DNA of 64,000 nt from a virus (lineage: Duplodnaviria > Heunggongvirae > Uroviricota > Caudoviricetes). Where the stretch lies: IMG/VR virus record IMGVR_UViG_3300045988_145635. One strand, given 5' to 3'. The notes below the pieces were generated by a model. That model worked only from the letters and a program-made list of their open reading frames with translations, was not told where the DNA came from and made no database searches. Within the stretch, counting starts at the first letter, position 1. Every line of letters starts with the position of its first letter. A program made the position numbers and the translations under genes. Positions 6,507 through 45,818 of this stretch are shown here, piece by piece.

Positions 6507-6613
6507 CATATGGTGGGGGATATCCCCACCTTCTCTTTGATTTGTAAGCCTTGTTTAAACACATAAGATAACAACTTGTTTAAACGCACCAAAAAAAGAA
6601 AAAGGAAAAACAC

Positions 6614-7756
6614 ATGTCATATTCAACGTTCCGTTTGGGTGCTAATGATGCAACCAAAGAGCCTATGTTCCTCGGACAATCTGTCAACGTGGCACGTTAC
6701 GATCAGCAAAAATACCGTGATTTTGAAAAGTTGATTGAACGTCAATTGTCTTTCTTCTGGCGGCCGGAAGAAGTTGATATTTCGAGCGATCGTATCGACT
6801 TCAACACGAAGCTGCGGGACCACGAACGTCACATTTTTCTGAGCAATCTCCGTTATCAAACGTTACTCGATTCAGTTCAGGGACGTAGCCCAAATGCAAC
6901 GCTGCTGCCGCTTATCTCTATTCCTGAACTGGAAACGTGGGTTGAAACGTGGTCTTTCTCTGAGACTATCCATAGCCGTAGCTACACCCACATTATTCGT
7001 GGCATGGTGGACGATCCGAGTATTGTTTTTGACGGTATTGTTACGGATGAAGAAATCATCAACCGAGCGATCAGTATCTCTGCTGAATATGACAGGCTTT
7101 ATGGGATGACATGCGAGCGCCAGTCGTTAGGTGAGAAGGAGTTTGAACGTCTGTACGTAAATGAATATGGCTGGGAGCCATACCCTTTGCATCGTCAGCT
7201 TTTCCGCACGTTGGTGTCCATTAATGCGCTTGAGGCGATCCGTTTCTATGTAAGTTTTGCATGTACGTTTGCCTTTGGCGAACGGAAGTTGCTTGAGGGT
7301 AACACCAAAATTATGCGCTTTATTGCCCGTGATGAAGCTCTGCATTGCGAAGGAACTGAACGCATGATCCGCTTCATGCGTACCGGTCGCGAAGGTTTAT
7401 TGTGGAAAGAGATTGCTGCTGATGAAGAAAACGTCATTTACGACACCATGAAATCAGTCGCCGAACAAGAAATGAACTGGGCAGACTATCTCTTCAAAGA
7501 CGGTTCGATGATTGGTTTAAACGCGGATATTCTGAAGACCTATGTAAAATACCGCACCAATCTGGCTATGAATCGTCTTGGCCTGAAGGCTTTATTTCCA
7601 GAAGTTACCACAGATCCGCTGGTCTGGATGAACAAGTGGTTGTTAACCGACACACTGCAAATTGCACCACAAGAGGCAGAGCAAAGCACATATCTGGTAG
7701 GTCAGATCGATTCTACCGTGGATAAGGCTTCTCTAAGCCAGTTTGCAGACCTGTAA
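6614..7756 (+). CDS. nrdB: ribonucleoside-diphosphate reductase beta subunit
   Basis: 380-aa protein with long blocks matching recalled NrdB ([38 protein letters not shown]); class A motif immediately upstream. Confidence 0.92.
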
Positions 7757-7833
7757 ACCGATACAAAGCATTATGTGGCCTGGCAACGCTGGGCCACAAT
7801 GGATCACAAGAATTAAGAAGGAACAAAACTAGC

Positions 7834-8703
7834 ATGAACTTTACCAAACTGACTGACCACCTGAAACTTGCCACCGATCGTCTCATTGGATTTAAGCCAG
7901 AACCATATGAGTTGCATGAAGGTCATGGTGTAGCTACTGAAAGTATTTACAAGATGGTCGATCAGTTTCATGAACTCTTCCAGCATCCGAGACGCGTTAT
8001 GCCGACACCAGAGCTGCTTCGTCTCCGTGCAAGCCTGATTCATGAAGAAGCTGTAGTGGAAGGTATTCCAGCCGCAATGAATGGGGATATTGAGCAACTG
8101 CTGGATGCAATGGCCGACTTTTTATACGTTGGTGTTGGTACGATGGTCGCCATCAAAGGTGGTATTTCTACCGGCATGACCTATTACACGCAGGAACAGA
8201 GCATTGATCGCTTTATGCAGACAATTTTTGTGCCCGGTAACACTGTTTTCGATGATATGGCAATGCCATTTCAGGAAGCTCGTGAGGCGTCATATATGCT
8301 CGAAGAGCTGGCAGATAAACTTGAGAACAAGACTGTTAAGGATTCTGAGCTGATTCAGGAACTGCGCCGTGTCATGAACAAAATCTATGTGGCGTGCATG
8401 ATGACCTATCGACTGGCTGATTTCCTCGGTATCAATGTAGTCGAGCTGGTTGGCGAAATTCATCGGTCTAACATGACAAAATTATGGCCTGCTGATGTCG
8501 AGGAACGTCGCCAGGCTGTGGCCAACTGCAAATACGACTCTTCAGACCTGGGATTTCGCCATGCTGATGGTACCGATAAGATGATCGGTTTTCGAATTTC
8601 CGATGGAAAGATTCTGAAGTCTCCAACCTATAGTGATGTCGATTTATCCTCCTTTGTTGAGCAAGCTAAAGCCTCAGCAATGTACGGAATGATCAAAAAA
8701 TAA
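7834..8703 (+). CDS. hypothetical protein, possibly MazG-like NTP pyrophosphohydrolase
   Basis: 289-aa ORF with two E/D-rich helical segments (LIHEEAVVEGIPAAMNGDIEQLLDAMADF; LIQELRRVMNKIYVA) resembling all-alpha NTP-PPases; assignment tentative. Confidence 0.4.
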   Translation: MNFTKLTDHLKLATDRLIGFKPEPYELHEGHGVATESIYKMVDQFHELFQHPRRVMPTPELLRLRASLIHEEAVVEGIPAAMNGDIEQLLDAMADFLYVGVGTMVAIKGGISTGMTYYTQEQSIDRFMQTIFVPGNTVFDDMAMPFQEAREASYMLEELADKLENKTVKDSELIQELRRVMNKIYVACMMTYRLADFLGINVVELVGEIHRSNMTKLWPADVEERRQAVANCKYDSSDLGFRHADGTDKMIGFRISDGKILKSPTYSDVDLSSFVEQAKASAMYGMIKK

Positions 8704-8846
8704 TTGTAGGTAGTTATCTATCTATGTATATTGTGTTAGCGCGTTAAATTCCTGAAACAACTATTCATTTTGGTGGCCTATGGCCACCATTTTTTTATCT
8801 ATCTGGCCTTGTTCCCTCAATAAATGTAAACTCACGTAATGAATAA

Positions 8847-9977
8847 GTGATTACTTATCTTTGTGAGGTTTTTGTGTCACTCCTTTTGAATCGTGAGCAT
8901 ACGAACGGTCAGGTAACAAACGCATCGTATGCAAAAGTTATTGAGACGGTGCTTAAAAGCGGCGTGCAGGCTGATGATCGCACAGGCACTGGTACTTTAA
9001 GCACCTGCTACGTTCCCTCTTACTACATGCTTACTGGTGGGACTGTGCCGCTTATTTCTGGAAAGGCGGTAAATCTTAAGCCACTGCTTGTCGAACTTGA
9101 GTGGTATCTGAAAGGCACGGGCAACATCCAATTTCTCAAGGATAACGGCGTTAAGATTTGGGATGCATGGGCCGATGAGAATGGCGATTTGGGGCCAGTT
9201 TACGGTAAGCAGTGGCGTCGATGGGAAGATACCCGCATCGTGAGCCATAGTGAATATCTGAGCAAGATCGCTACTTTCCGTGAACGCGGGTACAAAGTCG
9301 AGGGATACCTAGGTATCAGTGAAGATCGCGTAGTGCTGTCCCGTGAAATCGATCAGCTACAGCGTATTGTCGATACACTGCGCACGAACCCTACCGATCG
9401 TCGCATCATGCTTAACGCATGGAACGTAGGCGAGCTTGAGGATATGAAACTGCCACCTTGCCACTTTGTCTTCTCTTTGTGGAGTCGTGAGCTTGATTTT
9501 GAAACCCGTTTAACGATGGCAACTGACATTGGTCTTCAACACAGTCGCCTCGGTTACGAGTCTATCTACACCAAGATGCTATACGATCTGGAGATGGACG
9601 GCAGTGTTACTGAAGCTGAACTGGATGAACTTGGAATCCCCAAACGCATCCTCAACTCCTGCCTCGTACAGCGTAGCGTAGACACTTTTGTTGGTATGCC
9701 ATTCAATATTGCTGGCTATGGCATTCTCACTCATTTTCTCGCGAAGATTACGGGTCACATGGCCGGTGCATTTGTGCATTTTGGCTTTGACGTGCATTTG
9801 TACAACAACCACATGGAAGGTGTGTGTGAGCTAATGAAACGACAGGCTCCAGAGCATTCAGATCCGGTCGTTATTTTCCCTCATGAATGGTCAGAGTTGG
9901 ATGATTTCAAATGGGACGAGGTTTTAATTCTTGGCTATGACCCTCTATCGTGGATCAAGGTTCCAGTGGCGGTGTGA
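8847..9977 (+). CDS. thyA: thymidylate synthase homologue with internal insertion
   Basis: DRTGTGT, IWDAWADENGDLGPVYGKQWRRW, active-site LPPCH and DTFVGMPFNIAGY blocks; about 45 extra residues between the PCH and PFNIA blocks; start codon uncertain (ATG 8847 or GTG 8874). Confidence 0.85.
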   Translation: MITYLCEVFVSLLLNREHTNGQVTNASYAKVIETVLKSGVQADDRTGTGTLSTCYVPSYYMLTGGTVPLISGKAVNLKPLLVELEWYLKGTGNIQFLKDNGVKIWDAWADENGDLGPVYGKQWRRWEDTRIVSHSEYLSKIATFRERGYKVEGYLGISEDRVVLSREIDQLQRIVDTLRTNPTDRRIMLNAWNVGELEDMKLPPCHFVFSLWSRELDFETRLTMATDIGLQHSRLGYESIYTKMLYDLEMDGSVTEAELDELGIPKRILNSCLVQRSVDTFVGMPFNIAGYGILTHFLAKITGHMAGAFVHFGFDVHLYNNHMEGVCELMKRQAPEHSDPVVIFPHEWSELDDFKWDEVLILGYDPLSWIKVPVAV

Positions 9978-9978
9978 T

Positions 9979-10392
9979 ATGGCAAGAGGTATGTATGTCT
10001 TATGCGAAATTGAAGGTGTGCTGGCAAATGCCAGCCATCGTAAATCAGTATCTGACGCGGATGCAGGCCAGCTCATTGCCGGTGATGAACTCATTTTCCC
10101 CACCAGCCGTATGTTGCGTGGTTTTGCTCGCTCAGGGGCTGAAGTGGTGCTTATCAGTAGCCGCTCTGAAACTCTTGAAGCGCCAACTAAACGATGGCTG
10201 AAAGATTTTGGCGTTGATTATGACTGGCTTCATCTCGTACCGAATGGCACCAGTTATGAGAAGCATATTAAGCGCACATTAGCGGAGCATAAAGGCGATC
10301 TGCTTATCGCTGCGCTGGTGCACGATCCTCGACTCCGTGCCGCTTTAGCCGACTCTCACCATCGACCGGTCATCTATGAGGTGAGCAAATGA
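9979..10392 (+). CDS. hypothetical protein
   Basis: ATG overlaps the thyA stop (TGATATG); 137 aa; no confident motif. Confidence 0.45.
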   Translation: MARGMYVLCEIEGVLANASHRKSVSDADAGQLIAGDELIFPTSRMLRGFARSGAEVVLISSRSETLEAPTKRWLKDFGVDYDWLHLVPNGTSYEKHIKRTLAEHKGDLLIAALVHDPRLRAALADSHHRPVIYEVSK

Positions 10393-10865
10393 AGATGATC
10401 GCTGCTGTTGGCCGTAACTATGAGATCGGCATAGCGAATGAACTCCCCTGGCGTTGTTCTACCGATCTGAAGCTATTTAAGAGACTCACCAAAAACGCCA
10501 CTGTCGTTATGGGGCGTAAAACGATGGAAAGTCTCAAACGCCCTCTTCCAGAGCGTCATAACCTCGTTTTGACGCGCTCTCATGGCTTTGTACCAAATGG
10601 ATTCTACCCTGCTGGTGTGGATGATGTGTTGCGATTACCAGAGCCTGTGTGGGTGATTGGCGGGGAACAAATTTACTCGCTATTCATGCCGCATGTTGAA
10701 GAGATTTGGCTCTCCCACATCGGCGTTGATGTGCCAAACGCCGATGCATTCTTCCCGGCAAGCATGATGCGTAATTTAGGCTTTGTGCCTGTTGAAACAG
10801 CTTATACCCAACGAGCCAGCGAGGAAGAGCCTGGCTTTTCGCAGATCGTATACAGAAGGTCGTAA
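10389..10865 (+). CDS. dihydrofolate reductase
   Basis: 158 aa; IAAVGRN, LPWRC, VVMGRKT and VIGGEQIY blocks typical of DHFR; translationally coupled to flanking genes. Confidence 0.85.
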   Translation: MKMIAAVGRNYEIGIANELPWRCSTDLKLFKRLTKNATVVMGRKTMESLKRPLPERHNLVLTRSHGFVPNGFYPAGVDDVLRLPEPVWVIGGEQIYSLFMPHVEEIWLSHIGVDVPNADAFFPASMMRNLGFVPVETAYTQRASEEEPGFSQIVYRRS

Positions 10866-11509
10866 TGGATTACCGGATTGGGATCACTGGTGCTCAGGGC
10901 AGTGGGAAAACAACCCTGGCTAAATATATCGACAAACATTACGGAATCCCTTACGTGGATGCTGGTGTCGGAAGTTTGATGAGCCGCCTCGGTGTTCGAG
11001 TAGGTGATTCTATGCCTCTATATGAGCGGCTTCAGATTCAAATGGAAATAGCAAAGCATATAGAGCTACTTACGCGTGGTGTTGAAGGCTTTGTTATCGA
11101 TCGCACACCTGCTGATGTTATGGCCTACACGTTGGATTTGGTCGGCCATACAAATGAAGATCGGTGTATTGAGTTAGCCCTCGATATCGAAAAGTTTTGC
11201 CACAAAACTGCTATTTCAAACTTTAACGCCATTGCTGGCCTACGCCCGGGGGTCGCTCTCTCAGAGCGAGATTACTTGCGGTCACAACGAGCATCATTAG
11301 ACCGTCTGTATGTCGCTCGTATTGATGCGTTGATGTGCGGGGAACTGACAAAAATTCACCTGCATCCGCAAAGGGGAGATCTGCAAACCTTCGTCGTTTC
11401 CAACCGGTATCGCACAGTTGAAGCAAGAGCCAGATCAGTGATGAGAATGCTAGATAACGCTGTAGAAAAGATAGAAAACCGGTTCTGTGGCCGAGTGACC
11501 GTTCATTAG
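10865..11509 (+). CDS. P-loop NTPase, putative (deoxy)nucleotide kinase
   Basis: N-terminal Walker A GAQGSGKTT within the first 20 residues; 214 aa; sits in the nucleotide-metabolism cluster. Confidence 0.5.
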   Translation: MDYRIGITGAQGSGKTTLAKYIDKHYGIPYVDAGVGSLMSRLGVRVGDSMPLYERLQIQMEIAKHIELLTRGVEGFVIDRTPADVMAYTLDLVGHTNEDRCIELALDIEKFCHKTAISNFNAIAGLRPGVALSERDYLRSQRASLDRLYVARIDALMCGELTKIHLHPQRGDLQTFVVSNRYRTVEARARSVMRMLDNAVEKIENRFCGRVTVH

Positions 11510-11570
11510 AAATTGTTCGCCTCTTCGACATTGCGACAATAAAACTCTCAAAATGGGTTAAGGATAAAAA

Positions 11571-11990
11571 ATGTTTAGTGAAATGTTGCTTGAAGATGAA
11601 CTGGATCGGAAAACAACAGAGGCTTTGATTCGTGTAGCGGACGAACATTCCCGGTCGCTTATGAGCGATCGAGAGGCTCGTCTGGCTATTCGTGCCATAT
11701 TCGAAACTGCGCAGGGGCTTGTTGGTACACAAGTGGGTGAAGCCATTAACATCGCCATGTCTCAGTTCAGTGAAGGCAGTAAAAAGCCTCTGTTTCCTAT
11801 GCATTTGATGCTGGCTGGTGGCACGGTGCTTTATATCTCTGTTTGTCTGGATAGCAACCAAATCAATATTCTCAACACTGTGTCAGGTAAGTGGAAAGAT
11901 CCGATTGTCTGTGAAACCAGTGAAGAAACTTTGAAAAAAGCGGCTCAATTTGTACGTAGCGCACTACTTAAGGGCGCTAAGAAGTTGTAA
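11571..11990 (+). CDS. hypothetical protein
   Basis: 139-aa ORF with plausible AAGGA ribosome-binding site upstream. Confidence 0.45.
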   Translation: MFSEMLLEDELDRKTTEALIRVADEHSRSLMSDREARLAIRAIFETAQGLVGTQVGEAINIAMSQFSEGSKKPLFPMHLMLAGGTVLYISVCLDSNQINILNTVSGKWKDPIVCETSEETLKKAAQFVRSALLKGAKKL

Positions 11991-11999
11991 GGAGTTCTG

Positions 12000-16744: not shown

Positions 16745-16798
16745 CGGTTGTTAGTGCATATGCATTGACCGTCTTTTCGTAAGCAATTCATGTAACTA

Positions 16799-17263: not shown

Positions 17264-17527
17264 TGCTTGAGAGATTCCGGCTTGTGACCGTCATTGCTCT
17301 TCTGGTGATGGCGGTGTTGGTGGATTTTACGGGAAAGATGATGTCTGTCATTTCTGATGGCGTCCTCATTGGTCTGGCGATCTACTTCGCTTATCCGCTA
17401 GTCCGTAAAGCAACGTGTTAATGACAAGGGCCAAATGGCCCTTGTGTTTCGTTGACCGAAATAGAGAGTTTGCACCTTTACGTTTAGCTTGCTCCCCTTT
17501 TATGCCACATCACAATAAAGCCAATAA

Positions 17528-17546
17528 GAAAACAACTTGTTTAAGC
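17528..17546 (+). promoter_or_regulatory. class A palindromic motif
   Basis: AGAAAACAACTTGTTTAAG about 15 nt upstream of ATG 17561. Confidence 0.5.
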
Positions 17547-22019: not shown

Positions 22020-22074
22020 ACGCTACAAATCCTTCTGCGTGAATAAATAAAGGCCATAAGTTGTGGCCTTAAAT

Positions 22075-22130
22075 AAATTGTTTTCTGCCTTTTCTTATTT
22101 GTGAAAATAACCACAACTAGAAAACAACGG
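22075..22130 (+). promoter_or_regulatory. class A extended module (AATTGTTTTCTGCC ... TTTGTGAAAAT ... AGAAAACAA)
   Basis: Conserved ~55-bp module also present at 30182-30247 and 34255-34305; ends about 10 nt before ATG 22139. Confidence 0.5.
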
Positions 22131-22138
22131 AGTTAAGA

Positions 22139-26343: not shown

Positions 26344-26363
26344 TACTGTATGTGTATACAGTA
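26344..26363. promoter_or_regulatory. LexA (SOS) box
   Basis: TACTGTATGTGTATACAGTA fits CTGT-N8-ACAG with AT-rich centre; 16 nt upstream of the umuD'-like start, overlapping its promoter region. Confidence 0.75.
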
Positions 26364-26379: not shown

Positions 26380-26769
26380 ATGGGCTTCCCTTCTCCTGCG
26401 GCGGATTATGCTGAGAGCCGTATTTCTCTTGATCAGCAGATAATTAGACATCCTTCAGCGACCTACTTCATGAGGGCAGCTGATAGTCATCATCGTGAGG
26501 GAATATTGCAGGGCGCATTGCTGGTGGTCGATTCCTCACTTACCCCGGTTGATGGTTCTCTGCTTGTATGCGCTCTGGATGGGGAATATCGCGTAAAAAG
26601 ATACCGGAAGTATCCACGTCAGCATCTGGAGGATTTAAGAACTGGTAAGAAGGAAGCATTGCCAAAGGATGACGATGGATGCACGGGCAGCAATGCCGTG
26701 TTTGGTGTGATCACTCACATTATCAACGACGCAAGAAGTGGCGAGTTTGATGATTGTCCTGTGATGTAG
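26380..26769 (+). CDS. UmuD'-like protein (UmuD homologue beginning at the position of the RecA-mediated cleavage site)
   Basis: Begins MGFPSPAADY ... HPSATYF, matching UmuD residues directly after the Cys24-Gly25 cleavage site; Ser and Lys retained in ADSH and VKRY; AAGAGG ribosome-binding site; LexA box upstream. Confidence 0.75.
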   Translation: MGFPSPAADYAESRISLDQQIIRHPSATYFMRAADSHHREGILQGALLVVDSSLTPVDGSLLVCALDGEYRVKRYRKYPRQHLEDLRTGKKEALPKDDDGCTGSNAVFGVITHIINDARSGEFDDCPVM

Positions 26770-27907: not shown

Positions 27908-28064
27908 CCCGTCTCCTTTATTTTAATTTGCGCAATTGTCGCCTTGTAGTGTACTCCAGCTACGACATTTAATCATTTATGAGAAATGCTGTTATCACAT
28001 GGCAGACATAAGGCCATTTTGTTACTATCAAGCCCCTTTTCACTACAAAGAAGTAATGCCTACT

Positions 28065-30146: not shown

Positions 30147-30181
30147 TATAGACACAATCCCTTCTGATTTACGCATACCCT

Positions 30182-30247
30182 AAAACAATTTGTTTTCTGC
30201 CTTTTGTTAATTGAGATAATAAGCCACATAAGAAAACAAATTGTTTC
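30182..30247 (+). promoter_or_regulatory. class A extended module
   Basis: AAAACAATTTGTTTTCTGCC ... AGAAAACAAATTGTTT ending a few nt before ATG 30251; marks resumption of phage-type sequence after metG. Confidence 0.55.
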
Positions 30248-30250
30248 GGA

Positions 30251-31446: not shown

Positions 31447-31482
31447 CAGTTGTTTATACCAATAAGAAAACAACTGAATAAC
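31447..31482 (+). promoter_or_regulatory. class A motif, split-palindrome variant
   Basis: CAGTTGTTT-N11-AAACAACTG inverted repeat including CCAATAAGAAAACAA, placed at the start of the AC-rich ORF-free tract. Confidence 0.4.
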
Positions 31483-32337
31483 AGATCAACGAAACATCAA
31501 CGCTTTCACCCGATTTGGTCTAAAAAATTGACGTTTTCACACATCACTGCTTATACCCGTAATTCTACGCAGCAGACAGCGCCACAGCGTCCAATTTTCA
31601 CCACAGACGACCCAACACACTACCAACAAAAACACACGCTCAAAATCGTTCCCGTTGCGTTACATAACCATATAAACAACTTATTTTCAGGAATAACAAA
31701 ACAACTAAATAACACATATGCCATTCCCAAAACAACCAACCTCTTTATGGCAGGCTACCGAAAAGACCCACCTCTTCTTCCCAGGCTACCGGACAACCAA
31801 CCTAACTTTCACAGGCAATCCGAAAACATTCATACGCGCGATACCCACGACACGCCATTACCCAAACAACGAAGAAACACCTGAACCACTGAAACCCCAA
31901 CGAAGCCTGTTACCGCAAGGATTCTCTCAATCCCAAAAGACACGAAACATAACAATCACGGGAAACGCCATTACCCAATACACGAATAACTACAAAAGCC
32001 CTTCACACACTCCAGACAAACAACTCAAACACAATAACGAAAGGAATCGCCCACCTGCCATTACTCCATACACGGAGAAGAACAATCACCAAAACGACGA
32101 GAACACCCCATAGAAGAACCACCGCAAAACGAACGAAACCACATACACCGACAGAGAGAACAACACACCCAATTCACCAACAGAAATAGTCGCCGTATAG
32201 AACGTTCTGGAAGGAGTGAGCATTAACGCCTATAGAGAGGTTGAAACAGATAAAACACGAAGAAAACACAACATGTATAGCGAAGAAGCCAGGTATGTAT
32301 AAGTGGGGAGGGAAGGAGGGGTGTCGCCTCCTTTTTC
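31483..32337 (+). ncRNA. candidate long A+C-rich non-coding transcript (hypothetical)
   Basis: ~850 bp with strong depletion of G and T on the + strand and no credible ORF; begins after a class A-like motif and ends at a GGAGG-loop-CCTCC-TTTTT hairpin (32314-32337). Confidence 0.2.
32314..32337 (+). terminator. rho-independent terminator-like hairpin
   Basis: AGGAGG-GGTGTCG-CCTCCT followed by TTTTT. Confidence 0.5.
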
Positions 32338-32540: not shown

Positions 32541-32853
32541 TATAGCGTGAGGGAGAGTTGCGGCTGTCCACCTGTAATGTGCGGGAAGAAGAGAGGCGCT
32601 CACGTGCAGGCGAACTTACTTACCGTTGGACTCCCTCTGAATGCCCAGCTACAGCGTAATTGTGCCAGACAGTCAGCGGGTCACAATCGATTTCAGTAGG
32701 TTTTCGGGGAGAGGATTATTCTGCCCACCAGCCACCTTCGGCCACTAAATCAGAATAATGTAAAAAGTGTACTCGGTACTGAACCTGAAAACTCACTGCC
32801 AAAACCACATTCACCGGAATAAAATCCTTTTTCGCCTGTGCGTTATTGCGATA

Positions 32854-32885
32854 ATAACACCAACAAGAAAACATGTTGTTTAAGG
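32854..32885 (+). promoter_or_regulatory. class A palindromic motif
   Basis: TAACACCAACAAGAAAACATGTTGTTTAAGG; upstream half conserved with 35007-35036. Confidence 0.5.
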
Positions 32886-33223: not shown

Positions 33224-33349
33224 CCCCAACCAAAGCCAGCATTGCTGGCTTAACTTAATCTGTAGCCGCAGGGAAGAACCTGCATATCGCCCATGCACCT
33301 GATCAATATGCTTTGTAGCCGTTTTCTTACTGGTATTATTTACGCCATT

Positions 33350-33370
33350 GAGAAAACAAGTTGTTTACGG
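33350..33370 (+). promoter_or_regulatory. class A palindromic motif
   Basis: GAGAAAACAAGTTGTTTACGG ending 8 nt before ATG 33378. Confidence 0.5.
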
Positions 33371-33753: not shown

Positions 33754-33816
33754 TATTGTAAGTACATACTTACGATCATAGAATATAAAAATAACCAAAA
33801 CACTACGGAGAGTGAA

Positions 33817-34254: not shown

Positions 34255-34305
34255 CGATAACAATTTGTTTTCTGCCTTATCTGATTTGTGAAAATGATTT
34301 CACTG
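34255..34305 (+). promoter_or_regulatory. class A extended module
   Basis: CGATAACAATTTGTTTTCTGCCTTATCTGATTTGTGAAAATGATTTCAC, same module as at 22075 and 30182. Confidence 0.5.
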
Positions 34306-34879: not shown

Positions 34880-35006
34880 AAATGACCATCCTGTTTCCCG
34901 CAGGCTAAAACACCAACCTCTTACCTCCAGGCAACCGACAAACCCACCTGTTCCCGTCCGGCTACCGCAACTTTCCACTTTGACGCCTTATTCGTACAAC
35001 GATAAT

Positions 35007-35036
35007 TAACACCAACAAGAAAACAATTTGTTATTT
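35007..35036 (+). promoter_or_regulatory. class A palindromic motif
   Basis: TTAACACCAACAAGAAAACAATTTGTTATTT about 20 nt upstream of ATG 35054. Confidence 0.5.
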
Positions 35037-35053: not shown

Positions 35054-35536
35054 ATGAATTTTATCGCTACTGTAAACGCACCCGCACATGGCAATATCGC
35101 TGTAACGTTCTCTGACATTGAAAAACGAGTACTTGGTGCATGGCGCGACAATGAGACGGTAGAACTGTCAGCACAAGAAAAATGCATTATTGCACGCGAC
35201 ATCATTGGCAATCGTCGTTACTCGCGGGTATTTGAGAAAGCGTATGTGGTAAATTCTGGATTCGGAACGTTCGTCTTTCCGGTGCGCTCCGGGCGATTCT
35301 GCCAGTCCAAGTTGATTGAGTTCGCTACGCAGATTTCTGTCTGGATTAAAACTCAATCGTCGTTCAAATTTTCCGACGATGAAGCAGTATCGCAGGGGAT
35401 GCGGATCGCCAACAATGCAATTAAATGCAAAAACATTACGTATACCGCTGGCGTTGATACATGGAAACTGTTTTGCGCTAACTTTATGCTGAATGTATAC
35501 GCAAGCAACCGCATCCACATCCTTGATGGCGTGTAA
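35054..35536 (+). CDS. hypothetical protein
   Basis: 160-aa ORF after a class A motif; followed by a terminator hairpin. Confidence 0.5.
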   Translation: MNFIATVNAPAHGNIAVTFSDIEKRVLGAWRDNETVELSAQEKCIIARDIIGNRRYSRVFEKAYVVNSGFGTFVFPVRSGRFCQSKLIEFATQISVWIKTQSSFKFSDDEAVSQGMRIANNAIKCKNITYTAGVDTWKLFCANFMLNVYASNRIHILDGV

Positions 35537-37587: not shown

Positions 37588-37887
37588 TTACATCTTTTTT
37601 GCATAGTTCCTGATTTCTTTTATTATATATTCCTGAAAACGCTCCGAGTTTTCGCATTTGTCTTTTGAAGACTCATCAAGTCCCAACTTGCATCCCGCAA
37701 CGATCAGTCCATCTTGATATGCAGCGCCTAAAGCCATGCTTAGGTCTAACATGCACAAATCGTAGTCTTCCGCCTTTGAACACAACTCTGTAGAGACACG
37801 TTGCACTCGTTCAATGCTATTTTCTTGAGAAAATGCGGAAGAGCTAAAAATGAAAGTTAAGAATGTGAATGCTGCTACAGTTTTCAT
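37588..37887 (-). CDS. small secreted Cys-containing protein (paralogue A)
   Basis: N-terminal signal peptide MKTVAAFTFLTFIFSSSAFS; four cysteines with spacing similar to the paralogue at 37963-38259. Confidence 0.5.
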   Translation of the reverse strand: MKTVAAFTFLTFIFSSSAFSQENSIERVQRVSTELCSKAEDYDLCMLDLSMALGAAYQDGLIVAGCKLGLDESSKDKCENSERFQEYIIKEIRNYAKKM

Positions 37888-37903
37888 ATCAATATCCTAA
37901 AAC

Positions 37904-37955
37904 GGTAAAATTCGGTCAACCAAATCGAAGAAAACAAGAATTTTTCTGCCGTCTT
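37904..37955. repeat. 52-bp direct repeat, copy 1 (second copy at 38270-38321)
   Basis: GGTAAAATTCGGTCAACCAAATCGAAGAAAACAAGAATTTTTCTGCCGTCTT, about 94% identical to the copy that encodes the C-terminus of the 38263-38826 ORF. Confidence 0.8.
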
Positions 37956-37962: not shown

Positions 37963-38259
37963 TTATCGGACTGACTCTACAGCCTTACGATTGGTGTCAA
38001 AAAGCGCATCAACGAACAGCAATGAAGAGTTGTTCAATTCACATGGTTCATAATTTTCCACCTGTTCACATAGTTGAGCGGTCTTACCTATGTTTATCCC
38101 TAGTTTTACTGCTGCTGAAAGTTGAAACATGCAAACTGGAATATTCTGAGACGTTGAGCATACGTCATGCATCAGCGACTTAATAATTGCAATATCATCC
38201 TTTGCATTGGCTGAAATTGAGTAAACTAAAAATAATGATGTCAATAGTATCGATTTCAT
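37963..38259 (-). CDS. small secreted Cys-containing protein (paralogue B)
   Basis: Signal peptide MKSILLTSLFLVYSISANA; four cysteines. Confidence 0.5.
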   Translation of the reverse strand: MKSILLTSLFLVYSISANAKDDIAIIKSLMHDVCSTSQNIPVCMFQLSAAVKLGINIGKTAQLCEQVENYEPCELNNSSLLFVDALFDTNRKAVESVR

Positions 38260-38262: not shown

Positions 38263-38826
38263 TCAAAAAGGTAAAATTCGTTCAACCCAATCGAAGAAAA
38301 CAAGAATTTTTCTGCCGTCTTTCAACTTAAGTGTGACTAGGCAGGCATCAACGCCATCTGACGTTCCCTCAATTTCGCGGCCGTCTGCCATGTAGACCCT
38401 TATAGATTGGCCGTTTTGATAAGCCTTGCGACATATCTTAAAAAAATCACGACGTGATGGCTGGTTGTCTACATAGTCAGGGTGTATTGTTAGTCTCCCT
38501 TTGAAATCGTAATCAATGCCATCAATTACGCCTGATTCAATTGTGCTAATGCGCTCAAGTGGGAGCCTTATACGATTTTCTTTGTCAAATGGAGTTGGAC
38601 AAAGGTCAACTTTGTTACGAGATGACATGAGACCATAAACGTACATGCAAAACACTTGGCCGTCTTCGAGAGTGACTCTTACAGGAAATTTAGCCCTCCG
38701 CCAGAAGAGCAAGGTGCGTTCAGCATGTTCGTAGTCTCGCGGCCATACTTCAGCCGGTATGCCGTAGGTGATATCTTTCGTCGTCATATCATTATAAAGT
38801 GGTTGGCAATATGTCCATTGTACCAT
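38263..38826 (-). CDS. hypothetical protein
   Basis: 187-aa ORF; alternative start at ATG 38787 would avoid overlap with the lipoprotein gene; its last 19 codons lie in the 52-bp repeat. Confidence 0.45.
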   Translation of the reverse strand: MVQWTYCQPLYNDMTTKDITYGIPAEVWPRDYEHAERTLLFWRRAKFPVRVTLEDGQVFCMYVYGLMSSRNKVDLCPTPFDKENRIRLPLERISTIESGVIDGIDYDFKGRLTIHPDYVDNQPSRRDFFKICRKAYQNGQSIRVYMADGREIEGTSDGVDACLVTLKLKDGRKILVFFDWVERILPF

Positions 38827-39211: not shown

Positions 39212-39238
39212 ATTTGATTGACTATGATTAGTGAGTGG

Positions 39239-39927: not shown

Positions 39928-40494
39928 TTAATCATTCAATAATCTATATTTTCTTTTGATTAAATCTTCACCTTTTTTGGTGAACACAAAACCAAATTGC
40001 GATTTTTTGTTCAGCCTAAGGACTCTGTTATCCAACGCATCGGTTGATGGAATCAATGTTTGATCATCTATCCAATTTAGTAGCGTAAGAAAGTTCAGCA
40101 GCCTCAACGTTGTTGTGCGAAGCTCTTTCGATATATTTTCAATGCTGGCAATTCGTCTTTCTTTTTTCTCAGGTGGTACAGATAATTGTTCTTGAGGTTT
40201 CGTGGATAGATAATCAATTTCGTTTGCAGCATCGAATGATATATGTGGCGTAATTTTGCTAAAAAAGCCTTTCGCTGACTCACTTGATAATAAACCAGAC
40301 CTATTCATATCGTTTGTTATTCTGTACAGGAGTGGACTGTGTTTCATTTCAGGATAACGTTGATAAAAGTTAAGCAATTCAAAAGCAGCATTAGCGCCAA
40401 CAAGAAAATCAGAAGGATCGCTGACTTTCCAGAAAGAATGATTTTTCTTAGCGCCAGTGGTGTCAACAAATGATAATTCTTTTAACCAACTCAT
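39928..40494 (-). CDS. hypothetical protein
   Basis: ORF-track start 40527 trimmed to ATG 40494, which follows an AAGGAG site at 6-nt spacing. Confidence 0.5.
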   Translation of the reverse strand: MSWLKELSFVDTTGAKKNHSFWKVSDPSDFLVGANAAFELLNFYQRYPEMKHSPLLYRITNDMNRSGLLSSESAKGFFSKITPHISFDAANEIDYLSTKPQEQLSVPPEKKERRIASIENISKELRTTTLRLLNFLTLLNWIDDQTLIPSTDALDNRVLRLNKKSQFGFVFTKKGEDLIKRKYRLLND

Positions 40495-40559
40495 GATGTG
40501 CTCCTTTCTAACAAGTGAGCACATCATAGAATTAGTAGATAGGGGGTAAATATGAAATG

Positions 40560-40838
40560 TTACGGCAACCTGCTCAGTATTTCCTCTAAATCTTTTTTTG
40601 TCATATTGGAGTTTTCATAGATGCGCATGATTTTCTCACGCGTCTTAGCGGAAACCCCAACAGCAGATGTGACTTTGTCAAATTCAGCCATAGTCATCGT
40701 CTCCAGAATGGCATTGATAACTTCAGCCTTAGACATCTTAATTTTTTTCTCTTTGAGTTTTATTTGAAATTTTCCAAGTTTTTCATTGGCCTTATCAGAC
40801 AATGCCACTTGGCAATAAGTTGTTTTTTTTTCGCTCAT
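40560..40838 (-). CDS. hypothetical small protein
   Basis: 92-aa Lys-rich ORF immediately downstream of the helicase gene. Confidence 0.45.
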   Translation of the reverse strand: MSEKKTTYCQVALSDKANEKLGKFQIKLKEKKIKMSKAEVINAILETMTMAEFDKVTSAVGVSAKTREKIMRIYENSNMTKKDLEEILSRLP

Positions 40839-40840
40839 AA

Positions 40841-42400
40841 CTAATCTCGTTTCAGAATTCCAAAATCGAATGCGCCATCAATAGGCAATACACCTTCCGC
40901 AAAGCCAGGTGTGGTGTCGATGATGTGTTTTCGCTCATAAGAGTGAGACAACAGGTATTTGTTGCTAGTGTCAATGAAATCAGTGATAAAACACACGTTT
41001 GCCTGATTCTTCTTGGCTCGTAAGCCACGACCGACACGCTGTCTCATTTCAACTTCTGCTTTCCCACCACCAGCAAGAATGACCGCACCAACGCTTGGCA
41101 CATCAACACCAACATCCAGAATAGTCGAGCCTATTAAAACATCTATTTCACCAGACGCTAAACTGTTCAGCTTTGCTTGCCTTGTCGACTGGTTCGATTC
41201 CCCATAAATGAAGTCAACTCTAAGGCCGGACTCTTTCATCATTTCCATCAGGATTTGCCCGTGGCGTTTAAGACGAACCAGAGTCATACAATTGAGAGAA
41301 TGTTGCTTATAGAGCAATGCTTCGCGAACAATGGCCTCATTACGTCCCAAATTATACACGATCCCCAACTGATAAGCCTTTTGGTAGGCAGTGCTCATAC
41401 CTACTCTAAAATTGAGGTGTTTGTTGGCAAGTTCTGCCTTGATTCTGGCCTCGTCCGGCTTGTAGGCAACTTTATGATAAAGGAAGTATGGTTTTGCCAG
41501 AATGCCTCGATCAATCAGGTACTTTTCTGTGACTTTAATTTCAATTCGCCCGGCCACAGCCATCAGACGCATGTTGGCTTCTGTAGAATCCTTCATGAAC
41601 GGCGTGGCCGTAAGCGCCAGACGATAGTCTGCGTTCACACATAATCTGGCAATGTCATAGAAATTAGAGCCTGAAGACTCATGCGCTTCTTCCAGAATAA
41701 GCAGAGACACACTTGAAAGGAAGCGTTTCACTAGCTCCCGACGTTTGAGGTGGTAGCTCTTTTTATCTGGTGTTGCATCGCGTGGTGGTTCTTCAAGGAA
41801 ACTTGCCAGAGTTTGAACTGTAGCGACGTTGATATGTCGTGATACCTGGAACTCACCCGAGCCAATGACTCCAACCTTTTGGCCCTTTAACCACGGTTCG
41901 CCATTTTCGGCGCGGTAGTCGATGGATCTCTGGAAGTTTTCGGCCATTTGAAACATCAGAACAGAGCGGGTTGTTAAAAATAATGTCATTCGACCGATAC
42001 GTGCAGCTGCTTTGCAGGCAACATTAGATTTCCCGCCACCAGTAGCGATCTGCGCAATCATCATTCCCTCTCGAACCAGTGTTTCCACAGTCTGATCCTG
42101 ATACGCATAATCAGGATTGTATGGGAATGGGTTAACCGCCGGATTTGGTTTTCCAAGCGCCGGGGCTTTGTCTTTGCGGATATGAACACATTTGATGCCC
42201 GCCTTGTTCAAGTTCGCCGCTACAGGCTTGGCAAAGCCAGCAGGGAACGAGTTTTTACTCCAGTTGAACATCGTGCTTGTGCCCTTCCAGTCGCCAGTCT
42301 CGACTTCGTAGCTCAACATCTGTTGCACCAGTTGCTTTACCTTGTCATCTGCGCCAGAAATAAGCGCATTAACTGCGTTAGATACAATCCGAACAGTCAT
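40841..42400 (-). CDS. superfamily 2 helicase
   Basis: Motif I ATGGGKS, motif II LILEEAH (DEAH-type), motif III LTATP, motif VI QRVGRGLR; AAGAGG ribosome-binding site. Confidence 0.8.
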   Translation of the reverse strand: MTVRIVSNAVNALISGADDKVKQLVQQMLSYEVETGDWKGTSTMFNWSKNSFPAGFAKPVAANLNKAGIKCVHIRKDKAPALGKPNPAVNPFPYNPDYAYQDQTVETLVREGMMIAQIATGGGKSNVACKAAARIGRMTLFLTTRSVLMFQMAENFQRSIDYRAENGEPWLKGQKVGVIGSGEFQVSRHINVATVQTLASFLEEPPRDATPDKKSYHLKRRELVKRFLSSVSLLILEEAHESSGSNFYDIARLCVNADYRLALTATPFMKDSTEANMRLMAVAGRIEIKVTEKYLIDRGILAKPYFLYHKVAYKPDEARIKAELANKHLNFRVGMSTAYQKAYQLGIVYNLGRNEAIVREALLYKQHSLNCMTLVRLKRHGQILMEMMKESGLRVDFIYGESNQSTRQAKLNSLASGEIDVLIGSTILDVGVDVPSVGAVILAGGGKAEVEMRQRVGRGLRAKKNQANVCFITDFIDTSNKYLLSHSYERKHIIDTTPGFAEGVLPIDGAFDFGILKRD

Positions 42401-42445
42401 AAACCTCTTTCCTTAGTGCCTTTTGTATGTTATTTGGCTATTATA

Positions 42446-42466
42446 ATAAGTAAGTGATTACTTAGT
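42446..42466. promoter_or_regulatory. class B palindrome (AATAAGTAAGTGATTACTTAG) in a divergent promoter region
   Basis: Sits in the 65-bp gap between the divergently transcribed helicase and ParB-like genes. Confidence 0.45.
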
Positions 42467-42482
42467 GGATTGTAGCAATAAA

Positions 42483-43163
42483 ATGGATGTAAAAATCACG
42501 ATTTTGCAGGTTGATGTTGCCAACCTTCGCCCGAATACCTGGAACACCAATTCGGTTGGTGCGCAGAATTTTGAAAAACTGAAAGGTTCTATCGAAAAAT
42601 TGGGCTTTTTTAAGCCAATTTTGGCTCGTGAACTTGAAGATGGATTTTTTGAAATCCTCGGCGGCGAACATCGCTGGCGTGCCGCTATTGAGCAAGGAAT
42701 TTCAACGGTTCCAGTGCTTTCTGTGGGCAAAATTAGCGATGTCGTAGCTAAACAGATGTCACTGGTGGACAACGAGCGATACGGTGAAGACGACCAAATC
42801 GCATTGCAACGCTTCATTGAAGAAATTCAGTCAGAACTTGACTATCAACTGTCTGAAATCGCCCCGTATGACGACGAAATCTCGATGGTTTTAGCAAAAG
42901 AGGCGGCAATCGACCTTGAAGCACTGGAGGCGTTGTCTCGTGGTAGTGATGGGCCTGTCGATACCGACAAACGAGAGAAAACCGAACGTGTGGGGGCGGA
43001 ACATCAGACCATGCGCTTCAAAGTAACTTTCGATGCGTCAGATCGTGTTGCAGAAACCATAAAAAACATCATCAAAGAGCAGGCTATTAACACCGGTAAT
43101 GAAATGGAGAACGCTGGTGAGGCTCTGGTGTGGCTGGTCGACTACTACAAGGAGCGTATGTAA
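42483..43163 (+). CDS. ParB-like nuclease domain protein
   Basis: ILGGEHRWRAA motif of the ParB/sulfiredoxin fold; ORF-track start 42465 is GTG, ATG 42483 preferred. Confidence 0.65.
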   Translation: MDVKITILQVDVANLRPNTWNTNSVGAQNFEKLKGSIEKLGFFKPILARELEDGFFEILGGEHRWRAAIEQGISTVPVLSVGKISDVVAKQMSLVDNERYGEDDQIALQRFIEEIQSELDYQLSEIAPYDDEISMVLAKEAAIDLEALEALSRGSDGPVDTDKREKTERVGAEHQTMRFKVTFDASDRVAETIKNIIKEQAINTGNEMENAGEALVWLVDYYKERM

Positions 43164-43831
43164 TGACCAAAAAGTTTGAAATCGTATATCGCGACCCGGC
43201 AGATCTTATTCCCTATGAGATGAATGCCAAAAAGCATGATGAACAGCAGATCCGAGATCTGGCCGCAGCCATTAAAAAGCGCGGATTTGACCAGCCAATT
43301 ACGGTCGATAAGAACGACGTAATTATTACTGGCCACGGCCGCCGTGAGGCTGCAATTTTTGCTGGACTTGAGCGCGTGCCGGTTATTGTTCGCGATGATC
43401 TGAGTGATGACGAGGTACGTGCAAAGCGCCTTGAAGATAACCGACTTGCCAGCATTGATTACGATGCAATTAAGCTACAGAAAGAGCTTGAGTCGCTTGT
43501 TCTGGACGATATCGAGGTTTTCGGCTTCGAAGAGCGTGAGTTGAATGTTCTCGTTGGCAGTATGACAGAAGAAATGGACACCGACTCGCTAGTTATCGAT
43601 CTTGGCGAAGAAACTAAACGACAGAAGGATGAACACACCGAGATCAGTCGTGAAGTTGCAGCGGAAGAAGTACGTGTTGTCGACGTATTGGGCTTTAAAA
43701 CGCTCCCTGCTGGCTCTGCCATTGTTGTTGGTGATTTGCTTGCCCATATGGAAGAAATGACGGGAGAAAGCGGGGTAGACGCATTTGTGGCATATGCGGA
43801 GAAGATCTCTTCCGGGGAGATGGCTGCATGA
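43163..43831 (+). CDS. ParB-like nuclease domain protein (second copy)
   Basis: ITGHGRREAA motif; start set to the ATG overlapping the upstream stop (TAATG). Confidence 0.65.
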   Translation: MTKKFEIVYRDPADLIPYEMNAKKHDEQQIRDLAAAIKKRGFDQPITVDKNDVIITGHGRREAAIFAGLERVPVIVRDDLSDDEVRAKRLEDNRLASIDYDAIKLQKELESLVLDDIEVFGFEERELNVLVGSMTEEMDTDSLVIDLGEETKRQKDEHTEISREVAAEEVRVVDVLGFKTLPAGSAIVVGDLLAHMEEMTGESGVDAFVAYAEKISSGEMAA

Positions 43832-44493
43832 GCAAATACATCATCAACGTATCGTTTCAGACACGCGTAAATAAAACCACGCGCACGTTGGAAATCGCTG
43901 AGTCGTTCGGGCTTGGCCTGGACGAAAAAGAGTGGACGCTTTACGACAATCTGGAGCTGGAAGTGAAGCAGGGCGATGTGGTGTACATCACCGGCCAATC
44001 CGGTTCCGGCAAATCCGTTGTGCTGCGCGAGTTGCAACGACAGATGAAGGATGAAGGGCTGTCTGTAGCCTCCATCGATGATTTTACCTTCGATAATGAG
44101 GTTAACGTCATCGATCAGTTGGGCAAAACGACCAGCGATGCGCTTGGGTTGTTATCTATGGCTGGTCTGAACGATGCATATCTGTTTGTTCGCAAGCCTT
44201 CTGAAATGTCAGACGGCCAGAAATATCGTCTCAAGATTGCCAAACTGATTGAGTCAGGCGCTAAAGTGTGGGCTGCTGACGAGTTCGGCGCTGTTCTCGA
44301 CCGTGTAACCGCTCAGGTTGTGGCGTCTAACCTCCAGCGTGCCGCTCGAAAGGTTGGTGCGACGGTAATGGTGGCGACGACTCACGAAGACCTGAAGAAC
44401 GCGCTGCGCCCGGATATGCAGATCACCAAGCACTACAAAGAACGCGTGAAGGTGGAATATCACAATGGTAGTCATGATGAGGTTCATTTATGA
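43828..44493 (+). CDS. ABC-type ATPase-like protein (nucleotide-binding domain only)
   Basis: Walker A GQSGSGKS, signature-like SDGQKYRL, Walker B VWAADEFG, H-loop ATTHE; no transmembrane domain. Confidence 0.6.
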   Translation: MSKYIINVSFQTRVNKTTRTLEIAESFGLGLDEKEWTLYDNLELEVKQGDVVYITGQSGSGKSVVLRELQRQMKDEGLSVASIDDFTFDNEVNVIDQLGKTTSDALGLLSMAGLNDAYLFVRKPSEMSDGQKYRLKIAKLIESGAKVWAADEFGAVLDRVTAQVVASNLQRAARKVGATVMVATTHEDLKNALRPDMQITKHYKERVKVEYHNGSHDEVHL

Positions 44494-45380
44494 CGGACAT
44501 CATCATTAAACGCTACCGCCCTGAAGAGTTTCCGCGTCATCTGGATTTTCTGGAGCGAATGACTGTCACAAAGGGAACTGTAGAGGACTGGCACGCTCTT
44601 AAGTCGCTTCACTACAAAACAGACGGCAAACCTTTCGCGCCAACTTACTATCGCTGCGAACTTGATGACCGTCTGGTGGGCGTCGTGGTTATGGCTTACC
44701 CGAAACTACTGTTGGCACCTCGCCACCGCATGTTTCCTAAGTTGAAACCAACCACTAATACCACCGTGGCTAACCAGTACTGGGGTCGGTACGTGAATAA
44801 CAACTTTGCGGTGATCAGTCGCTCAGTTGTGGATACTCAGTATCGTGGCGTAGGCGTCTCTTATCGAATGATTAACCTGGTTAGCAGGATGCATGACCGG
44901 CCAATCATTGAGATCCAGTCCTCGATGAGCAAATACAATCCCTTCGCCATGAAAGCAGGGTTTAAGTTCATCCGCCCTGAGCGACCGAAGAGCTATGAAA
45001 GTGCACTGCGTGTATTCCAGCGCCATTTCCGTTCCGACCCGGGTGATAACGAGGCGATCGTCAAAGAGTTGTTCGCAATGAGCGAGTCTCGTCGTCGCCG
45101 TGCACTGCGTGATCTGGTGGCGGACTACCACAAGAACAGTTCCCTGGCAAAAGCTGGGCGGAATCGTGGCACGACGATTCAGGACATTGCCGACAGTCTG
45201 GTGGACGAGGCCAGCATTGTGAAGCTGCTCAAGGACATTCACAACCTGAGCTTTACGTCTCCGTTGTATGGTGTGTACCGAAACCCTGACTTTGGTCGTC
45301 GACTGCCTGACACGCTGCCACTGCTGGCATTCGACAAACAACCTTTGGATAAACCGTTAGAAATTGCTTTACCGGCATAA
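44490..45380 (+). CDS. hypothetical protein (possible GNAT-like fold)
   Basis: 296-aa ORF; QYRGVGVSYRMI segment resembles GNAT motif A; tentative. Confidence 0.4.
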   Translation: MTDIIIKRYRPEEFPRHLDFLERMTVTKGTVEDWHALKSLHYKTDGKPFAPTYYRCELDDRLVGVVVMAYPKLLLAPRHRMFPKLKPTTNTTVANQYWGRYVNNNFAVISRSVVDTQYRGVGVSYRMINLVSRMHDRPIIEIQSSMSKYNPFAMKAGFKFIRPERPKSYESALRVFQRHFRSDPGDNEAIVKELFAMSESRRRRALRDLVADYHKNSSLAKAGRNRGTTIQDIADSLVDEASIVKLLKDIHNLSFTSPLYGVYRNPDFGRRLPDTLPLLAFDKQPLDKPLEIALPA

Positions 45381-45389
45381 GGATTTGCC

Positions 45390-45656
45390 ATGACGTTAAC
45401 CGATAAACAAAAGGACATCATCAAAACGCTCAATCTCGGTTATGAGCGAGGTCATTTACTTGATCTGGACGAATTGCTTGAAGTTTTGCCGTACAAGACA
45501 ACCAAGCAAAGTATCCAGTTCTCAATTCGCGCTCTGATAAAAAAGGGGCTGGTGGAGAAAGGGCATACGCGCCAACGCAGTGACAATCGCTATCACCGCC
45601 GGACTCTTGGGTTAACCACTTTAGGTCGAGCCAAAGCGAAGTTACTGGTGATGTAA
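45390..45656 (+). CDS. small putative DNA-binding protein
   Basis: 88-aa basic protein with helix-turn-helix-like segment. Confidence 0.4.
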   Translation: MTLTDKQKDIIKTLNLGYERGHLLDLDELLEVLPYKTTKQSIQFSIRALIKKGLVEKGHTRQRSDNRYHRRTLGLTTLGRAKAKLLVM

Positions 45657-45680
45657 TCGGTCTGGGAGCTTATTTAAAGA

Positions 45681-45736
45681 CCTGCTTCTGTATATATAAA
45701 TAATAAGTAACTTATTAAATATATACGGAAGCAGGC
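45681..45736. repeat. long AT-loop hairpin element, copy 2
   Basis: CCTGCTTCTGTATATATAAATA ... ATATATACGGAAGCAGG, near-identical arms to 14325-14381. Confidence 0.7.
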
Positions 45737-45770
45737 TTAGTAAGACATGCCCAGACCTAATTAAACACCC

Positions 45771-45818
45771 CAGAAAACAAGTTGGTTAGCATATGCAGTA
45801 AACAAGTTGTTTTAGAGC
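45771..45818 (+). promoter_or_regulatory. class A motifs (two adjacent copies)
   Basis: CAGAAAACAAGTTGGTTAGC and GTAAACAAGTTGTTTTAGAGC upstream of the terminase small subunit gene. Confidence 0.5.

Follow-up and report, generated by a model that had tools for sequence, protein, structure and literature searches.

What does a short palindrome that recurs in front of start codons do in the genome of a phage that also lives as a plasmid? The question is raised by a 64,000-nucleotide stretch of Caudoviricetes DNA (IMG/VR virus record IMGVR_UViG_3300045988_145635), the whole of which is called the window here. A sequence-only reading had noticed the repeat, AAAACAA-N-TTGTTT, upstream of at least ten start codons and had proposed a phage-specific promoter class, an operator for a dimeric regulator or a shared translational control element. 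The window element is an SSU5/pHCM2-type phage-plasmid that shares 98% identity with Escherichia phage Cyrano (pLF82 of E. coli LF82). From the analysis below, the repeat, named motif A, is probably (about 0.6) an operator on sigma70 promoters for an element-encoded repressor that silences the lytic genes in the plasmid state.

Motif A is a 19-base near-palindrome, AGAAAACAA-N-TTGTTTAAG, with the symmetric core AAACAA-N-TTGTTT. Twelve full copies and two half copies (AGAAAACAA only) were found in the window, every one of them intergenic (Table 1). The pattern AAAACAA-N(0-30)-TTGTTT gave 10 strand-matches in the window against 0.41 expected from dinucleotide-preserving shuffles, and the core AAACA-N3-TGTTT occurred 7 times against 0.13 expected from shuffles, so the frequency of the motif is far above chance. 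When all gapped 5-mer palindromes were counted without bias over the whole Cyrano and SSU5 genomes, AAACA-N3-TGTTT and AACAA-N1-TTGTT were among the most enriched, with 11–12 copies in Cyrano (0.3–0.4 expected) and 13–14 in SSU5 (0.2 expected). A position weight matrix (PWM) scan of the window returned 12 sites scoring 18–27 over a background of at most 14; the matrix was trained on these same sites, and the shuffle counts and the unbiased palindrome count are the independent tests. In Cyrano, 15 of the 17 strong sites are wholly intergenic, though intergenic DNA makes up 13% of the genome, and the other two overlap annotated gene starts that were probably placed too far upstream.

The recurrence upstream of start codons claimed by the sequence-only reading was thus borne out, and all the coordinates that it listed correspond to real elements, with some changes in their make-up. 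The site at 31447 consists of two separated half sites and forms no palindrome, the one at 34255-34305 has the upstream copy and lacks a downstream one, and the one at 22075-22130 has one full inverted copy, its second member being only a half copy. The distance of 15–42 nt to the ATG did not hold. Forward copies end 8–37 nt before the start codon, the value of 37 nt belonging to the second terS copy; for the first terS copy this distance is 62 nt, and for the three inverted copies that belong to promoter modules it is 52–61 nt.

The motif is shared by related elements. An 8-kb piece of the window is 98% identical to Cyrano across its full length and also matches other SSU5-type phage-plasmids; position 28000 lines up with Cyrano 90931, and the Cyrano record starts at the point equivalent to the terminase end of the window. 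According to the annotations of Cyrano, PhiR41_1 and SSU5, the gene content comprises ribonucleotide reductase, thyX, DHFR, MetRS, a block of small genes, a UvsW helicase block on the minus strand and ParB-like genes, followed by the terminase and structural genes. Besides Cyrano, SSU5 carries about 21 motif sites at corresponding promoters, as many (about 21) are present in the divergent Klebsiella ozaenae plasmid CP027615, whose regulator candidates are 34–78% identical, and four copies are found in Yersinia pestis pMT1, which keeps part of the backbone. No strong motif site was found in Pectobacterium plasmid Drgb1, the most distant relative found (CYRAN_123 ortholog 59%). Even so, AAGAAAACAA and an inverted GTTTTCTT are retained in its parA promoter, and -10-N-AGAAAACAA occurs at two or three others. 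An exact-pattern scan of IMG/VR returned SSU5-like contigs and scattered single matches and was uninformative.

The motif and its promoter context were analyzed with a collection of 116 distinct variants, to which the window, Cyrano, SSU5, the first 50 kb of PhiR41_1 and about 150 IMG/VR relatives contributed. Positions 4–9 (AAACAA) and 11–16 (TTGTTT) are symmetric and nearly invariant, being kept in 91–116 of the 116 variants, and the centre base is free; every core position except 11 is conserved in at least 104. The flanks are consistently asymmetric (AGA at one end, A-N-(G/A) at the opposite end). The partner of the motif is a sigma70-type extended -10 element (TGnGATAAT or TGTGAAAAT) with a weak -35. 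A -10-like hexamer (GATAAT, GAAAAT, TATTAT; its second base A and its sixth T) precedes 205 of the 292 forward related copies. In 199 of these 205 the gap between it and the AGA end is exactly 10 or 11 nt, and TG is present at -15/-14 in 160 of them (78%). Inverted copies, CTTAAACAA-N-TTGTTTTCT followed by GCC, end exactly 16 nt before the hexamer in 80 of the 89 that have one. In the window, three of the four inverted copies end 16 nt 5' of a -10, six of the ten forward or half copies have a -10 at 10–11 nt (22119, 30231, 32866, 33351, 35018 and, with the weaker CACAAT, 17527), and the TG lies at 22100, 30212, 32847, 33331 and 34287. The -10 elements are weak for 16798 (AGCAAT) and 45772 (CCTAAT, 45756), and no such hexamer was found at 10–11 nt from 6566 and 31465. 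In contrast to this fixed spacing, start codons lie anywhere from 6 to 74 nt beyond the motif in related copies. Copies are also paired, with centres 51 bp apart at 30180/30231, at SSU5 88316/88367 and at SSU5 93659/93710; the offset at 22068/22119 is 51 bp too, but the downstream member is a half copy.

The same arrangement is seen as an evolutionary footprint. For the gene at 35054, 54 distinct orthologous versions of the region 5' of the start were aligned; the encoded protein is only 67–100% identical among them. The -35-like T(T/G)GACG, CGATAAT (invariant), AACCAAC and the motif are conserved, while the 15–16 bp spacer varies freely and the leader is divergent. Judged from this pattern of conservation, the region would be a sigma70 promoter with an operator just past its start. 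A strict sigma70 consensus scan of the window found promoters no commoner than in shuffles and missed the motif promoters, since their -35 is weak and their spacer short; the extended -10 is visible only after alignment anchored on the motif. The earlier remark that the sites do not look like sigma70 promoters is right for the palindrome itself but not for its surroundings, which include a conserved sigma70-type promoter directly upstream. The annotations of Cyrano, SSU5 and PhiR41_1 list no phage RNA polymerase (no profile search was made). With a conserved sigma70-type promoter and no annotated polymerase of this kind, a phage-specific promoter class is unsupported. If transcription starts about 7 nt past the -10, the forward copies would span about +5 to +23, and the inverted ones would lie at about -47 to -29.

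Whether the motif works as DNA or as RNA was considered next to two further explanations. Folded as RNA, it reaches only -0.4 to -0.8 kcal/mol, which gives no gain in stability over shuffles (z-scores +0.4 to +0.7). Over the 116 variants, complementarity is broken 71 times in the six central symmetric pairs, with no compensatory change, so that what is conserved is the sequence and not a structure. Rfam gave no match at gathering score anywhere in the window. In addition, the inverted copies are not in the mRNA, because they sit between the terminator of the preceding gene and the -35. The weak fold, the lack of covariation, the spacing fixed to the -10 and the untranscribed inverted copies point to an action as DNA. 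The proposed operator for a dimeric regulator fits the symmetric core, the fixed -10 position, the inverted copies over the -35 region and the invariance across relatives, whereas a shared translational element is disfavoured by the same fold and covariation results, the variable start distance and the copies upstream of the promoter. A particular form of RNA-level control was kept under consideration because the Salmonella relative of an FljA-family protein encoded on these elements is an mRNA-binding translational repressor: Yamamoto and Kutsukake reportedly showed in 2006 that Salmonella FljA binds the fliC mRNA leader and blocks translation. The phage protein would then read the motif in the 5' untranslated region and block translation or destabilise about 20 phage mRNAs. 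All motif-bearing relatives examined have the gene, and it was not detected in Drgb1, which lacks the motif; the forward copies would be part of the transcript, 8–37 nt 5' of start codons. In the Salmonella fliC leader, taken from a primer in PMC5056187, CAAGTTGT stands about 24 nt 5' of the AUG, positioned like several phage copies, but the sequence likeness covers 7–8 bases only. Moreover, the spacing of the motif is tied to the -10 and not to the ribosome-binding site, the FljA-like protein drops to 34–58% identity among relatives while the motif is unchanged, and its gene is near background in the lysogen (18 vs. 9.8). Together with the RNA results above, this makes such control improbable. 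It is more improbable still that the palindrome is functionless and rides passively in a duplicated promoter cassette spread by recombination. The modules at 22068, 30180 and 34255 (55–70 bp) are indeed about 80% identical along their length, and a fused single terS copy in Klebsiella relatives shows inter-copy recombination; however, most copies share only the -10 and the motif, orthologous regions keep the motif invariant while adjacent bases diverge, and about 21 sites are kept in CP027615, with proteins only 34–78% identical.

Several of the motif promoters have a near-consensus extended -10 and should fire unaided. In RNA-seq data of the Cyrano lysogen (PMC9928086), the median expression of the first genes behind the 14 Cyrano motif promoters was 7.6, the prophage background being 9.8, and only parA (49.8) among them reached five times background. 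That promoters so strong in appearance stay silent during plasmid life argues for repression, and the forward and inverted positions, both overlapping the core promoter, suit a repressor, the downstream one being unsuited to a classical activator. The alternative is that motif A would define promoters of one temporal class, middle or late, which stay off in lysogens for want of a phage-encoded activator or sigma-appropriating factor of lytic growth that recognises the motif, such as the winged-helix-like CYRAN_37 or CYRAN_123. The silence of the lysogen would be equally explained by an absent activator as by a present repressor, both proteins are at background there, CYRAN_37 is found wherever the motif is and was not detected in motif-less Drgb1, inverted copies are centred near -38, close to class II activator positions, and some members have a weak -10 and -35. 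Nevertheless, most copies lie downstream of the -10 (about +5 to +23), where classical activators do not work, many members have a TGnGATAAT extended -10 that should need no activation, one element flanks the core promoter on both sides, the parA operon carries the motif and yet is expressed at 5–9 times background in the lysogen, and the putative recognition helix of CYRAN_123 is kept in Drgb1 despite the missing motif. Activation is therefore considered unlikely as a general explanation, though less so than control at the RNA level. Several points weigh against the repressor as well. The asymmetric flanks are not explained by a simple homodimer. Members with a poor -10 (AGCAAT at 16782, CCTAAT at 45756) could need activation, and an activator model may apply to such weaker promoters. 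The counts over related copies and variants (116, 205, 89) overstate the sample size because the sequences are not independent, and repression is argued from position and from one RNA-seq set of a 98%-identical element, not of the window element.

In the repressor reading, which we prefer, an element-encoded multimeric DNA-binding protein would sit on the motif A sites and exclude or trap RNA polymerase, the sites being attached at fixed positions to promoters of the host enzyme (sigma70, extended -10). An inverted copy 16 nt before the -10 would serve instead of, or besides, the downstream copy, and the copies paired at 51 bp would be about five helical turns apart. As a result, about 12 promoters in the window and about 20 genome-wide would be silent during plasmid life, placing nucleotide metabolism, replication, a small early-type cluster, the parA operon and the terminase/late operon under one control.

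Candidate binding proteins were compared across five genomes. The leading one, to be taken as tentative, is the small protein encoded after a Walker-type parA (CYRAN_29/SSU5_034), outside the window. It is expressed at nine times background in the Cyrano lysogen, and the parA promoter upstream carries the motif in three lineages (Cyrano 29256, SSU5 30446 and, in the divergent Klebsiella plasmid, 31195). The upstream gene has a Pfam ParA match, and the gene order is parA, then the small protein. The AAGAAAACAA and inverted GTTTTCTT in the parA promoter of Drgb1 also count in its favour. Throughout the CYRAN_29 family, down to 48% identity, PQGRPTRGK..I.SRTMS.EDE and FTRSDVIRAAI are invariant, and this conservation pattern and the place after a Walker-type ParA resemble those of ribbon-helix-helix partition proteins. 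The predicted strand-helix-helix order fits that fold; the AlphaFold monomer has low confidence, with a predicted local distance difference test (pLDDT) score of 64. Other results speak against this candidate. No Pfam family match and no PDB sequence match were found for CYRAN_29, hhalign against ParG, CopG and omega was not significant, and Foldseek returned nothing significant, a result that is meaningless on a model with a pLDDT of 64. Known partition proteins of the ParG/omega type have arrayed short repeats as their binding sites, in contrast to the single 19-bp sites seen here. Furthermore, Y. pestis pMT1 keeps its motif copies with no CYRAN_29 homolog, and CYRAN_37 tracks the motif across genomes just as well.

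CYRAN_37 and CYRAN_62, which are present wherever the motif is, not detected in Drgb1 and at background in the lysogen, are the remaining candidates by their distribution. CYRAN_45, an XRE-type helix-turn-helix protein expressed in the lysogen, was discarded for its absence from SSU5, which has the full motif set, and SSU5_116 for its absence from the window and Cyrano. CYRAN_117 is disfavoured, as its predicted DNA-facing residues vary among relatives sharing the invariant motif, and so is CYRAN_123, with its putative recognition helix unchanged in Drgb1 and its background expression. Sequence searches of the PDB and of PHROGs gave nothing useful for the candidate proteins. Among consensus sequences for host factors, none of the KdgR, NrdR, IHF, CRP, Fur, 434-type and sigma28 ones is known to fit the motif in both sequence and spacing (an informal, non-computed comparison). 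One may speculate, at odds as low as those of the leading candidate, that the post-parA protein binds the motif and that the about 20 operators double as scattered centromere sites and switches silencing the lytic promoters. If true, plasmid segregation would be tied directly to the maintenance of lysogeny; in Drgb1 the protein would act only at its own parA promoter, and the SSU5 lineage would have recruited a partition protein as master lytic repressor.

Table 1. Motif A sites and associated features in the window (positions in nucleotides)
Feature	Position	Strand	Remarks
Motif A copy AGATAACAACTTGTTTAAA	6566..6584	+	Upstream of nrdB (ATG 6614); conserved in Cyrano 70323, SSU5 70216
Motif A copy AGAAAACAACTTGTTTTAA	16798..16816	+	Precedes TciA-like gene (ATG 16838); weak -10-like AGCAAT 16782-16787
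Motif A copy AGAAAACAACTTGTTTAAG	17527..17545	+	Precedes ATG 17561; -10-like CACAAT 17511-17516
Three-element promoter module	22068..22137	+	Inverted CTTAAATAAATTGTTTTCT 22068-22086; TG + GAAAAT 22100-22108; half copy AGAAAACAA 22119-22127; precedes ATG 22139 (Eae-like gene); recurs in SSU5 at 85599
Double-operator module	30180..30249	+	Inverted copy 30180-30198; TGAGATAAT 30212-30220; forward copy 30231-30249; precedes ATG 30260
Half copy AGAAAACAA	31465..31473	+	Separate TTGTTT at 31451; weakest member
Extended -10 and forward copy	32847..32884	+	TGCGATAAT 32847-32855; AGAAAACATGTTGTTTAAG 32866-32884; likely start codon 32894
Extended -10 and forward copy	33331..33369	+	TGGTATTAT 33331-33339; AGAAAACAAGTTGTTTACG 33351-33369; directly followed by GGAG ribosome-binding site and ATG 33378
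Inverted copy and -10	34255..34295	-	CGATAACAATTTGTTTTCT 34255-34273, 16 nt before TGTGAAAAT 34287-34295; precedes ATG 34330
-10 and forward copy	35001..35036	+	GATAAT 35001-35006; AGAAAACAATTTGTTATTT 35018-35036; precedes ATG 35054
Two copies 25 bp apart	45772..45815	+	45772-45790 and 45797-45815; terminase/late operon leader (ATG 45853)
G+C-rich hairpin AGAGCGC-N-GCGCTCT, then GTGTGTTTTAG T-run	45813..45834	+	Between the operators and terS; terminator scan, fold
FljA-family gene	38263..38826	-	Cyrano ortholog matches PF03614 at 1e-80; 79% identical to SSU5_121
92-aa protein, CYRAN_117 ortholog	40560..40838	-	Ribbon-helix-helix-like sequence pattern; expressed in lysogen
88-aa winged-helix-like protein, CYRAN_123 ortholog	45390..45656	+	Just upstream of the terS operators

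Some sites deserve further comment. In the terS leader, both copies are kept in 34 distinct relatives and the spacer between them varies; Klebsiella-type relatives have the single fused copy. The hairpin that follows (45813-45845 with GTGTGTTTTAG) is conserved in all relatives, with compensatory changes from GCGC/GCGC to GCAC/GTGC, and looks like a terminator or attenuator, which would imply control of the late operon by antitermination. No tandem repeat was found upstream of 35018. On the 3' side of the half site at 31465, about 240 nt of A/C-rich DNA without an open reading frame (31484-31720), ending at a weak motif-like site at 31671, could be a long leader or a non-coding RNA. The Cyrano annotation starts CYRAN_105 inside the motif (window 32873 instead of 32894) and CYRAN_110 upstream of it (Cyrano 97903 instead of 97972); both are probably annotated too long, since start codons with a proper ribosome-binding site lie just 3' of the motif.

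A second palindrome, TAAGT-N4-ACTTA, unrelated to motif A, was also noticed. It occurs five times in the window (8844-8857, 33759-33772, 42451-42464, 49246-49259 and 54741-54754) against 0.02 expected, and 8, 8, 10 and 7 times in Cyrano, SSU5, CP027615 and pMT1, respectively, with none in Drgb1. It overlaps core promoters (TTGAAA-17-TATGAT near 49246, TTGTAA-17-TAGAAT near 33759), and some copies are inside the late operon. It looks like the mark of a second regulon with its own regulator. At 26346-26361, a perfect LexA-box-like sequence (CTGTATGTGTATACAG) lies 19 nt 5' of a stand-alone S24/UmuD-like gene (26380-26769). No umuC adjoins this gene, and expression of its Cyrano ortholog in the lysogen is 148 against the background of 9.8. 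Site and gene may provide an SOS input for induction.

The surroundings of the FljA-family gene were also noted. On the minus strand between 37588 and 38826, the gene is followed by a small open reading frame with a signal peptide (37963-38259), a 54-nt duplicate of its own 3' end (37900-37953) and a second small signal-peptide open reading frame (37588-37887), a layout that looks like a cassette insertion by duplication. PWM matches at 37929 and 38295 were rejected as operators because they encode GRKILVFF within the FljA-like gene and its duplicated 3' end. Drgb1, with no detectable FljA-like gene, has an Hfq homolog (48354-48575) just upstream of a DnaB-like helicase; in the SSU5 group, the FljA-like (tandem Sm-like) protein stands in place of this homolog.

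SSU5/pHCM2-type phage-plasmids are common, and some carry resistance genes. With two small proteins of this type as queries, tblastn returned about 800 plasmid records from Klebsiella, Escherichia, Enterobacter, Salmonella and Citrobacter, and from Y. pestis for one of the two. In 58 plasmid records, the identity of the post-parA protein is under 60%. A literature search on SSU5, pHCM2 and phage-plasmid regulation found no account of operators or of lytic-gene silencing; the motif A operator is not previously described for this plasmid family, while the kind of control element itself is familiar. A single invariant operator on about 20 promoters defines a regulon and predicts transcription starts. 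Motif A can also serve as bait for finding the repressor and as a target for deliberate induction or curing of these elements.

Among known systems, the C1 repressor of P1 is alike in serving a plasmid prophage with one repressor and many scattered operators that overlap lytic-operon promoters. It differs in that the P1 operators are asymmetric 17-mers (ATTGCTCTAATAAATTT) and not palindromes, and the annotations of Cyrano and SSU5 contain no C1 homolog. Omega of pSM19035, ParG of TP228 and KorB/KorA of RK2, partition proteins that are global repressors as well, resemble the motif A system in a site in the parA promoter and palindromic operators over many promoters, as well as a small conserved protein after a Walker-type ParA, expressed in the plasmid state. 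Omega and ParG sites, however, are arrays of 7–8 bp repeats, and KorB, with a ParB fold, has a 13-bp site, whereas single 19-bp sites on about 20 promoters are seen here. No clustered centromere array was found upstream of parA, where there is one motif copy only; motif A occurs as scattered single or paired sites. Lac O1 (centred at +11) and the paired operators of gal and lambda have an operator overlapping the start region, and the pairing of gal and lambda is paralleled by a second full copy about 51 bp off, on the same helical face, across the core promoter; four modules were counted as paired full copies in this comparison, two in the window and two in SSU5. The sequence and the protein family are different from those of lac, gal and lambda, and cooperative binding or looping would follow from the spacing only. 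The FljA/fliC leader of Salmonella is alike in the FljA-family gene on the element and in a motif in the presumed 5' leader of many genes, but the phage motif is anchored to promoters, is also found upstream of them and has neither stable RNA structure nor covariation. Although not a member of any of these groups by sequence, the motif A system appears to be functionally nearest to the dispersed C1 operators of P1 and to the KorA/KorB and omega regulons of RK2 and pSM19035.

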